64,000 bases of DNA, from the NCBI RefSeq assembly GCF_988242995.1, contig NZ_OZ547043.1. One strand, 5' to 3'. The notes below the pieces were generated by a model, which worked only from the letters and a program-made list of their open reading frames with translations, did not search any database and was not told the origin of the DNA. Positions within the stretch are counted from its first letter, which is position 1; every line of letters begins with the position of its first letter. Both the position numbers and the translations under genes were made by a program. Shown one piece after another: positions 56,736 through 56,756 of the stretch.

Positions 56736-56756
56736 ATGTAACGCAATCCGTTACAT
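56736..56756. promoter_or_regulatory. candidate repressor operator upstream of ytfQ
   Basis: 8-5-8 inverted repeat atgtaacg-caatc-cgttacat about 70 bp upstream of ytfQ ATG, next to a TATAGT -10-like hexamer. Confidence 0.4.

Follow-up and report, generated by a model that had tools for sequence, protein, structure and literature searches.

The stretch of DNA that was analysed (hereafter the window; 64,000 nucleotides of contig NZ_OZ547043.1, NCBI RefSeq assembly GCF_988242995.1) includes ytfQRT-yjfF (gafABCD). These genes encode the sole sugar importer known in E. coli to be specific for furanoses, and in EHEC arabinose induces them strongly. The first gene, ytfQ (56827-57783, plus strand), is separated from the divergent ppa (55987-56517, minus strand) by a gap of 309 bp, an intergenic region present in 5425 of 5426 complete E. 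coli genomes. The promoter in this gap is usually described with AraC and GalR/GalS only, and a conserved extra operator would mean that the regulatory logic is incomplete. A sequence-only reading of the window had pointed out that no regulator gene is adjacent to ytfQRT-yjfF, and this holds at every ytfQ locus examined, with ppa upstream and ytfR, ytfT, yjfF and fbp downstream in the window, and genes such as IMPDH, MCP and unrelated LysR genes as neighbours in other taxa.

A gene for a methyl-accepting chemotaxis protein (MCP) lies between yjfF and fbp in Enterobacter sp. Bisph1 (L009, 10646-12211; Tar-like sensor and MCP signalling domains by Pfam) and in a Citrobacter sp. (L002, 10692-11804; HAMP and MCP signalling domains by Pfam), and ORFs matched by length only occupy the same position in an Enterobacter sp., a Pluralibacter sp. 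and Phytobacter (L015, L018 and L053). The gene is absent in E. coli, and its product could be a furanose chemotaxis partner of YtfQ.

The features of the ytfQ promoter region are, in order of position:

56639-56676, plus strand: two direct AraC-type half-sites, GAGCAGGAAAATCCATA (56639-55) and TAGCCGCATTTTTCATA (56660-76), 21 bp apart
56682-56697, no strand: upstream GalR/GalS-type operator, ATGAAAGCGATTACAA, with the core TGnAAnCGnTTnCA at 56683-96
56698-56719, plus strand: distal CRP-like site, TGTGA (56701-05), N6, TTTTA, 31 bp upstream of the proximal site
56706-56721, plus strand: TTAAC-N6-TTYAC, a conserved direct repeat spanning roughly -75 to -60, with a T run after it
56729-56750, plus strand: probable cAMP-CRP site, TGTGA (56732-36) with a weak right half GCAAT (56743-47), centre 56739.5
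56736-56756, no strand: palindrome, candidate operator of a dimeric regulator, from sequence and conservation
56768-56773, plus strand: TATAGT, the -10 hexamer, part of the invariant block TTGTCTATAGTT (56763-74; identity 0.98)
56780-56782, plus strand: predicted ytfQ transcription start, 7 nt 3' of TATAGT
56827-57783, plus strand: ytfQ (gafA), coding for a protein of 318 aa that is 100% identical to E. coli YtfQ
56829-56844, no strand: published GalR operator GTGGAAACGCTTACTT, overlapping ytfQ codons 1-6 and invariant in the alignment

The palindrome at 56736-56756 reads ATGTAACGCAATCCGTTACAT, i.e., ATGTAACG-CAATC-CGTTACAT, the perfect 8-5-8 inverted repeat that the sequence-only reading had described, and 71 bp separate its end from the ytfQ ATG at 56827, in agreement with the distance of about 70 bp given there. 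Perfect repeats with 8-bp arms and a spacer of 0-10 bp occur 38 times in the window (about 13 in Markov simulations), seven of them with a spacer of exactly 5, where chance predicts about one 8-5-8 repeat in 64 kb, and with such repeats this common the palindrome is by itself unremarkable. The palindrome pattern, allowing three or fewer mismatches, is found once in the 64-kb window against 0.19 expected. It is comparison across species, and not symmetry alone, that on sequence grounds marks the palindrome as a real element.

For this comparison, 80 loci coding for YtfQ relatives were collected, one genome per species, and 22 Enterobacteriaceae upstream regions were aligned. The conserved unit is a 7-7-7 element, ATGTAAC-N7-GTTACAT, with arms at 56736-42 and 56750-56 and the spacer at 56743-49. 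Orthologous ytfQ promoters do show the conservation whose lack had been named as evidence against an operator: of 23 Enterobacteriaceae genomes, 21, spread over about ten genera, have no mismatch in either 7-bp arm (Escherichia coli, E. albertii, three Citrobacter, several Enterobacter, Pseudocitrobacter, Superficieibacter, Phytobacter, Mangrovibacter, Pluralibacter sp. UBA7423, and several MAGs). Column identity in the 22-sequence alignment is 0.974 for each arm and 0.773 for the spacer, falling to 0.386 for the six bases 3' of the palindrome, with 0.67 for the 5' UTR. In all 21 arms-perfect genomes the spacer is 7 bp and the inner arm position is C/G, all 42 arms carry TGTAA and never TGCAA, and the 14 arm positions have zero compensatory changes across the ten or so genera while the 'loop' varies. 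The distance from the start of the palindrome to the -10 is a constant 32 bp in all genomes, with divergent flanks. The CG-containing core of the earlier description did not hold up, as the eighth (innermost G..C) pair is not conserved and many genera have ...GCATTCTGTTACAT; the 8-5-8 form is specific to some strains, and the variable innermost pair makes the conserved element 7-7-7.

Two genomes depart from this pattern, Enterobacter cloacae with one arm mismatch and Pluralibacter gergoviae with the left arm lost, and both keep TGTGA and the -10, such that the promoter can evidently function without the palindrome. The palindrome is absent upstream of the ytfQ relatives in Erwinia, Pantoea, Pectobacterium, Serratia, Yersinia, Budvicia, Aeromonas, and Vibrio; in Erwinia, Pantoea, Aeromonas, and Vibrio, a TGTGA-N6-TCnnn is present upstream of ytfQ.

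Several genomes vary in the lengths around the promoter. Enterobacteriaceae bacterium RIT691 carries the whole promoter module, palindrome included, about 200 bp upstream of ytfQ (L013, ~5800-6000), with about 110 bp of extra GC-rich sequence inserted in the 5' UTR. Pseudocitrobacter, Phytobacter, Mangrovibacter, and several Enterobacter have an extra 76-100 bp of poorly conserved sequence between the GalR operator and the promoter module (alignment columns ~227-326, falling between window positions 56699 and 56700), which is missing from Escherichia, Citrobacter, the E. cloacae group, and Pluralibacter.

Within the promoter, TGTGA at 56732-36 is invariant in the 22-sequence alignment, as are C56744 and A56745, and across genera the site takes the form TGTGA-N6-KCAWT, its right half matching the CRP type at 2-3 of 5 positions and TGTGA standing a fixed 36 bp from TATAGT. 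Judged from these bases, it is probably a CRP site, with a centre between about -40.5 and -41.5 as in class II promoters, in a register taken from the -10. The sequence-only reading had noted a CRP-like motif, tgtgattaacg, which is present at 56701-56711 and whose TGTGA (56701-05) is not conserved outside Escherichia, Citrobacter, and the E. cloacae group, and had overlooked the relevant site at 56732-36, which overlaps the left arm. The left arm of the palindrome is inside the CRP-type site and the right arm is over the -35 region, at roughly -31 to -25; the overlap with the -35 region and the TATAGT -10 were both proposed in that reading, and the hexamer is found at 56768-56773, 11 nt after the palindrome. 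There is no recognisable -35 hexamer 16-18 bp upstream of TATAGT, and no consensus sigma-70 promoter was called on the plus strand, as expected for an activator-dependent promoter. The TTAAC-N6-TTYAC repeat, TGTGA, the palindrome, and TTGTCTATAGTT keep a fixed register and form a rigid promoter module, followed by a Shine-Dalgarno sequence (GAGGA) and the ytfQ ATG overlapped by the published GalR operator. We take the repeat to resemble the CreB 'cre tag' (TTCAC-N6-TTCAC) and the tandem sites of the OmpR family.

Farther upstream, the AraC-type half-sites, in which TCCATA and the second AGC are invariant in the 22-sequence alignment, presumably fit the consensus TAGC-N7-TCCATA, and AraC control of ytfQ has been reported in the literature. 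The upstream GalR/GalS-type operator has TG.AA.CG.TT.CA invariant in 22 of 22 sequences, with a regex match in all 22, and reads ATGAAAGCGATTACA in E. coli and GTGTAACCGGTTACA-like in other genera. The published table of GalR sites gives for ytfQ the ATG-proximal site only, so that the operator at 56682-56697 is not listed (PMC5110547), and GalR ChIP-chip has a 22-fold peak at ppa/ytfQ with the site at 4449964-79 (PMC5110547), from which window positions convert to NC_000913.3 by adding 4393135. The coding sequence of ytfQ begins AUGUGG and this GalR operator starts at the G of the start codon, which would put the repressor on the translation start region at about +50.

TCCATA lies exactly 33 bp from the upstream GalR operator in every genome, and the linker from that operator to the palindrome ranges from 42 to 152 bp across genera. 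The AraC half-sites and the upstream GalR operator (56639-56697) are thus a rigid module, set at distances from the promoter that differ by about 110 bp among genera, an arrangement suggesting that AraC may antagonise GalR or act by looping, rather than by direct contact with RNA polymerase. The two GalR-type operators are 147 bp apart in E. coli, or 14.0 helical turns, and across the genomes compared are spaced at 146-148, 231, and 239-244 bp (near integral turns) as well as at 132-133 and 235 bp, distances whose fit to loop phasing is suggestive only. This pair of operators, together with the variable AraC/GalR module, bears on how AraC could activate from far upstream. Overall, AraC, GalR/GalS and, almost certainly, CRP act on the ytfQ promoter, and apart from the CRP site they appear to do so away from the palindrome.

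What is observed at the palindrome, namely its sequence, its conservation, its constant spacing from the -10, and a position apart from the AraC and GalR sites, points to an operator that is probably maintained by selection for a regulator dimer encoded elsewhere in the genome. Such a dimer would bind both arms, whose centres are 14 bp apart, with its dyad at about -35, the left arm falling within the central six non-contacted bases of the predicted CRP site near -41, and its footprint would reach from the downstream half of the CRP site into the -35 region. As the arms overlap these positions, the bound dimer should be incompatible with the normal complex of CRP and RNA polymerase, and repression or anti-activation of CRP-dependent ytfQRT-yjfF transcription is the most likely outcome, a sign that we infer from position only. 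The palindrome would then constitute a third layer of control besides AraC (56639-76) and the two GalR/GalS operators (56683-96 and 56829-44). CRP reads no bases in the central six positions of its site; the arms are thus in parts that neither CRP nor polymerase reads, and the promoter machinery can explain the KCAWT spacer and not the arms. Likewise, arms that are invariant and free of compensatory changes around a variable loop fit a DNA-reading protein and not an RNA stem. The sequence-only reading, an operator for a trans-acting repressor, is partly supported, with strong comparative evidence in the conserved arms (21 of 23) and with the -35 overlap, and is to be amended in that AraC, GalR/GalS, and almost certainly CRP also act on this promoter. 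By its sequence features, the palindrome would be a new, so far unassigned example of a familiar type of element, in which a palindromic operator overlaps the site of an activator.

The search for further copies that had been proposed as a way to define a regulon returned none: with up to two arm mismatches, there is no second copy in the window, in 33 kb of K-12 promoters from the gal, ara, and CytR regulons, or in about 1 Mb of YtfQ-relative loci (about 1.1 Mb in total). A single-target regulator and a small regulon are both possible. In the papers searched on ytfQ regulation, GalR and AraC were found, and no assignment of the palindrome to any factor. Among candidate factors, a regulator not yet linked to the motif ranks first, CytR second, and a non-canonical GalS/GalR contact third, and for an unlinked regulator the 14-bp spacing of the arm centres makes a winged-helix type most likely. 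A more specific model can be offered tentatively, in which a regulator not yet linked to the promoter reads ATGTAAC-N7-GTTACAT and gates the access of CRP there, and could be CytR in an unprecedented geometry or a winged-helix protein reading an Rrf2-style box; if this is true, the uptake of galactofuranose and arabinofuranose gains a third signal (nucleoside, redox, or other) beyond arabinose, galactose, and cAMP. The palindrome is a clean single-site bait for what would be a missing regulator at a well-studied E. coli promoter, and changes to its right arm would leave the CRP core intact.

A number of established motifs were compared with the palindrome and set aside. The TyrR box (TGTAAA-N6-TTTACA) and the GacA-UvrY box (TGTAAG-N6-CTTACA) are both 18 bp, and ytfQ has N7 and a C/G inner arm position in every genome, leaving the spacing off by one. 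The PadR site, ATGTAA-N4-TTACAT, is 5 bp narrower, and AlsR, the regulator of the paralogous allose transporter, has a different palindrome. An AraC site over the right arm scores 7/10 for the best 17-mer, in E. coli only, and leaves the left arm unexplained. A PurR-like or GalR-like reading of the inner sequence ACGCAATCCGTTACAT does not fit, given a central CC and a lack of conservation. The GCAAT part of the E. coli ACGCAATCCGTTACAT is not conserved in the ytfQ promoters of other genera. YtfH (HxlR family), also encoded in the window, was set aside in view of its unrelated intergenic palindrome, ACTTACT-TTT-AGTAAGT. That 7-3-7 element, at ~40258-40274 in the divergent ytfG(qorB)-ytfH intergenic region, is probably the operator of the HxlR-type YtfH. 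Since each family tested has at least one defining feature that the ytfQ palindrome lacks, the palindrome was not filed under any of them.

The reading that dispenses with a separate factor, in which the arms are conserved as part of a CRP/polymerase promoter, as an RNA hairpin of a transcript started upstream, or are accidentally symmetric, has little probability. CRP does account for the conservation of the spacer (KCAWT), 8-bp palindromes are frequent by chance, P. gergoviae retains TGTGA and the -10 and not the left arm, and the RNA fold has an energy of -9.2 kcal/mol (z = -2.1). However, CRP skips its central six bases and no polymerase element occupies -31 to -25, an arm identity of 97% beside a flank of 39% is beyond chance, and the hairpin lies upstream of the predicted start, has no T run, and has 14 positions with zero covariation across about ten genera; an intrinsic terminator or structured RNA was rejected on the same grounds, with no terminator called and a z of only -2.1. 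Another suggestion is a non-canonical third GalS/GalR contact, with the arms serving as half-sites that stabilise a loop between the flanking operators, and here the comparison with LacI/GalR and other operators that the sequence-only reading had recommended gave a divided result, the half-sites matching GalS/GalR and CytR and the spacing being wrong for both. The LacI/GalR half-site TGnAA is found at -7 to -3 from the dyad on both sides (TGTAAC / GTTACA), and ATGTAAC is the outer 7 nt of the best half-sites (mglB and galS, ATGTAACCG); the 14-16 bp operator with a 4-bp half-site gap and a central CG is not found, there being 9 bp between TGTAA and TTACA. The palindrome sits between two GalR-type operators 147 bp apart, and the ytfQ ChIP signal (22-fold) is the third strongest in the genome despite an imperfect listed operator (PMC5110547). 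Nevertheless, a LacI-family dimer would need the half-sites 5 bp closer together, most genera lack the central CG, outside E. coli neither of the overlapping 16-mers scores as an operator, and a genome-wide GalR motif scan gave only the ATG site (PMC5110547), making this third contact highly improbable. CytR is a better candidate, though still an unlikely one. It would bind the octamers GATGTAAC and GTTACATA beside and over cAMP-CRP and anti-activate ytfQ, which would tie a furanose transporter to the nucleoside regulon. CytR is the only LacI-family repressor known to combine flexible half-site spacing with an obligatory CRP partner; its SELEX octamers are AATGYAAC / GTTRCATT (PMC3454398), a consensus whose Y/R permits the T/A variant, and both ytfQ arms match it at 7 of 8 positions. 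CytR, which occurs throughout Enterobacterales, always has a CRP site within 5 nt of a half-site (PMC3454398), and at ytfQ the right octamer starts 2 nt past the CRP core and the left octamer is inside it, with another CRP-like site 31 bp farther upstream that is confined to the E. coli group (Escherichia, Citrobacter, and the E. cloacae group). The inner sequence ACGCAATCCGTTACAT also resembles a stretch of tsx-p2, ACGCAATCGATTACGT, that lies between CRP-like sites and is taken as the CytR operator (in K-12, upstream of tsx at about -150 from the ATG). Against CytR, the 7-bp spacer is outside the favoured classes (≤4-5 bp or 10-13 bp) and puts the octamers on opposite faces (PMC3454398), the palindrome overlaps one CRP site where a CytR operator would lie between two, and 42 of 42 arms from 21 genomes have TGTAA and never the optimum TGCAA. 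Natural CytR sites are weak and drifting compared with the perfect ytfQ palindrome, none of six K-12 CytR promoters has a 7-spaced copy, no link between CytR and ytfQ was found in the literature searched, and ytfQ is absent from the main text and one supplementary file of a comparative-genomics study of CytR.

The remaining reading, that the palindrome is an Rrf2-type box read by NsrR, IscR, or an unrecognised member of the fold, would place ytfQ under redox, NO, or Fe-S control and is quite improbable at this locus, despite the best match in form. TGTAAC-N7-GTTACA is exactly, in sequence and spacing, the experimentally defined operator of S. aureus HypR (TAATTGTAACTA-N3-CAGTTACAATTA). A metagenome scan for the exact 7-7-7 motif, with the ytfQ context excluded, gave at least 120 loci, and among the 120 matches listed at least 14 have the palindrome at the very start of a ~150-aa Rrf2-family gene (PF02082; three of the 14 genes are Rrf2 by Pfam and the other eleven are tied to them by phmmer or a shared N-terminal sequence), often with the start codon inside the right arm. 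The 7-7-7 motif is a genuine operator type of YwnA/HypR-like Rrf2 dimers. In these metagenomic Rrf2 sequences, a TNPVVVRR recognition helix is a feature of the YwnA/HypR group; to our knowledge, IscR and NsrR are the only Rrf2 proteins of E. coli, and neither has this helix. The window does carry nsrR (12489-12845), the only homologue in the sequence searched, at 31% identity. A perfect 11-1-11 palindrome in the ytfE promoter (38192-38214, AAGATGCATTT-T-AAATGCATCTT) is the NsrR box of that promoter, and this box is 4 bp narrower than the ytfQ palindrome (ATGxAx-N5 vs N9), the mismatch on which NsrR (AAGATGCATTT-N-AAATGCATCTT) was rejected; scans of the window for palindrome-like sites did not pick it up. 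The type 1 and type 2 motifs of IscR do not fit the ytfQ palindrome either, and no Rrf2 gene is adjacent to ytfQ at any ytfQ locus examined.

Two further patterns were seen among the metagenomic loci. At high-GC loci the Rrf2 gene starts with the ATG of GTTACATGA, and at L135, L142, L146, L171, L174, L184, L185, and L190 this ATG is inside the right arm of the gene's own box (…GTTACATGA…), with the Rrf2 identity established by Pfam for L185 and by phmmer or N-terminal similarity for the others; an ATG in this position would imply leaderless or near-leaderless autoregulated transcripts. A 13-1-13 palindrome, AACATGTAACGTATTACGTTACATGTT, recurs at seven high-GC metagenomic loci (L098, L126, L140, L161, L201, L180, and L153) with no obvious common neighbour gene, and could be an operator or a mobile repeat.

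Set beside known systems, the candidate ytfQ operator shares its parts with four of them. As at araFGH, where AraC is upstream, CRP is at -41.5, the -10 is weak, and there is no -35, ytfQ has AraC half-sites upstream of a probable CRP site in the class II position and lacks a -35; it differs in that the AraC sites stand off from the CRP module by a variable 42-152 bp and are locked to the GalR operator, and in the extra palindrome over the CRP site. With GalR/GalS operators and the gal repressosome it has in common the half-site ATGTAAC and a promoter flanked by upstream and intragenic operators, as at galE, whereas 9 bp instead of 4 bp separate TGTAA and TTACA and there is no conserved central CG. 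The CytR/cAMP-CRP modules (deoP2, udp, tsx-p2, cdd, nupG, and cytR) have the same inverted octamers of the AATGYAAC / GTTRCATT type, directly beside a CRP site near -41 of a catabolic or transport promoter that depends on CRP, but the ytfQ element has a 7-bp spacer, lies over CRP and the -35 where those modules have the operator between two CRP dimers, has TGTAA and not TGCAA, and is conserved far better than known CytR sites. The operators of YwnA/HypR-type Rrf2 proteins have the same TGTAAC-N7-GTTACA core with arm centres 14 bp apart, and the HypR box overlaps core promoter elements in a repressor role, as the ytfQ palindrome likewise overlaps promoter elements; in contrast, the metagenomic and staphylococcal boxes adjoin their own regulator gene while ytfQ has no adjacent Rrf2 gene, and the flanking C/G of the Rrf2 CATGTAAC...GTTACATG form is absent in ytfQ. 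The palindrome is nearest to the Rrf2 (HypR-type) box in geometry and to the CytR/CRP module in context.
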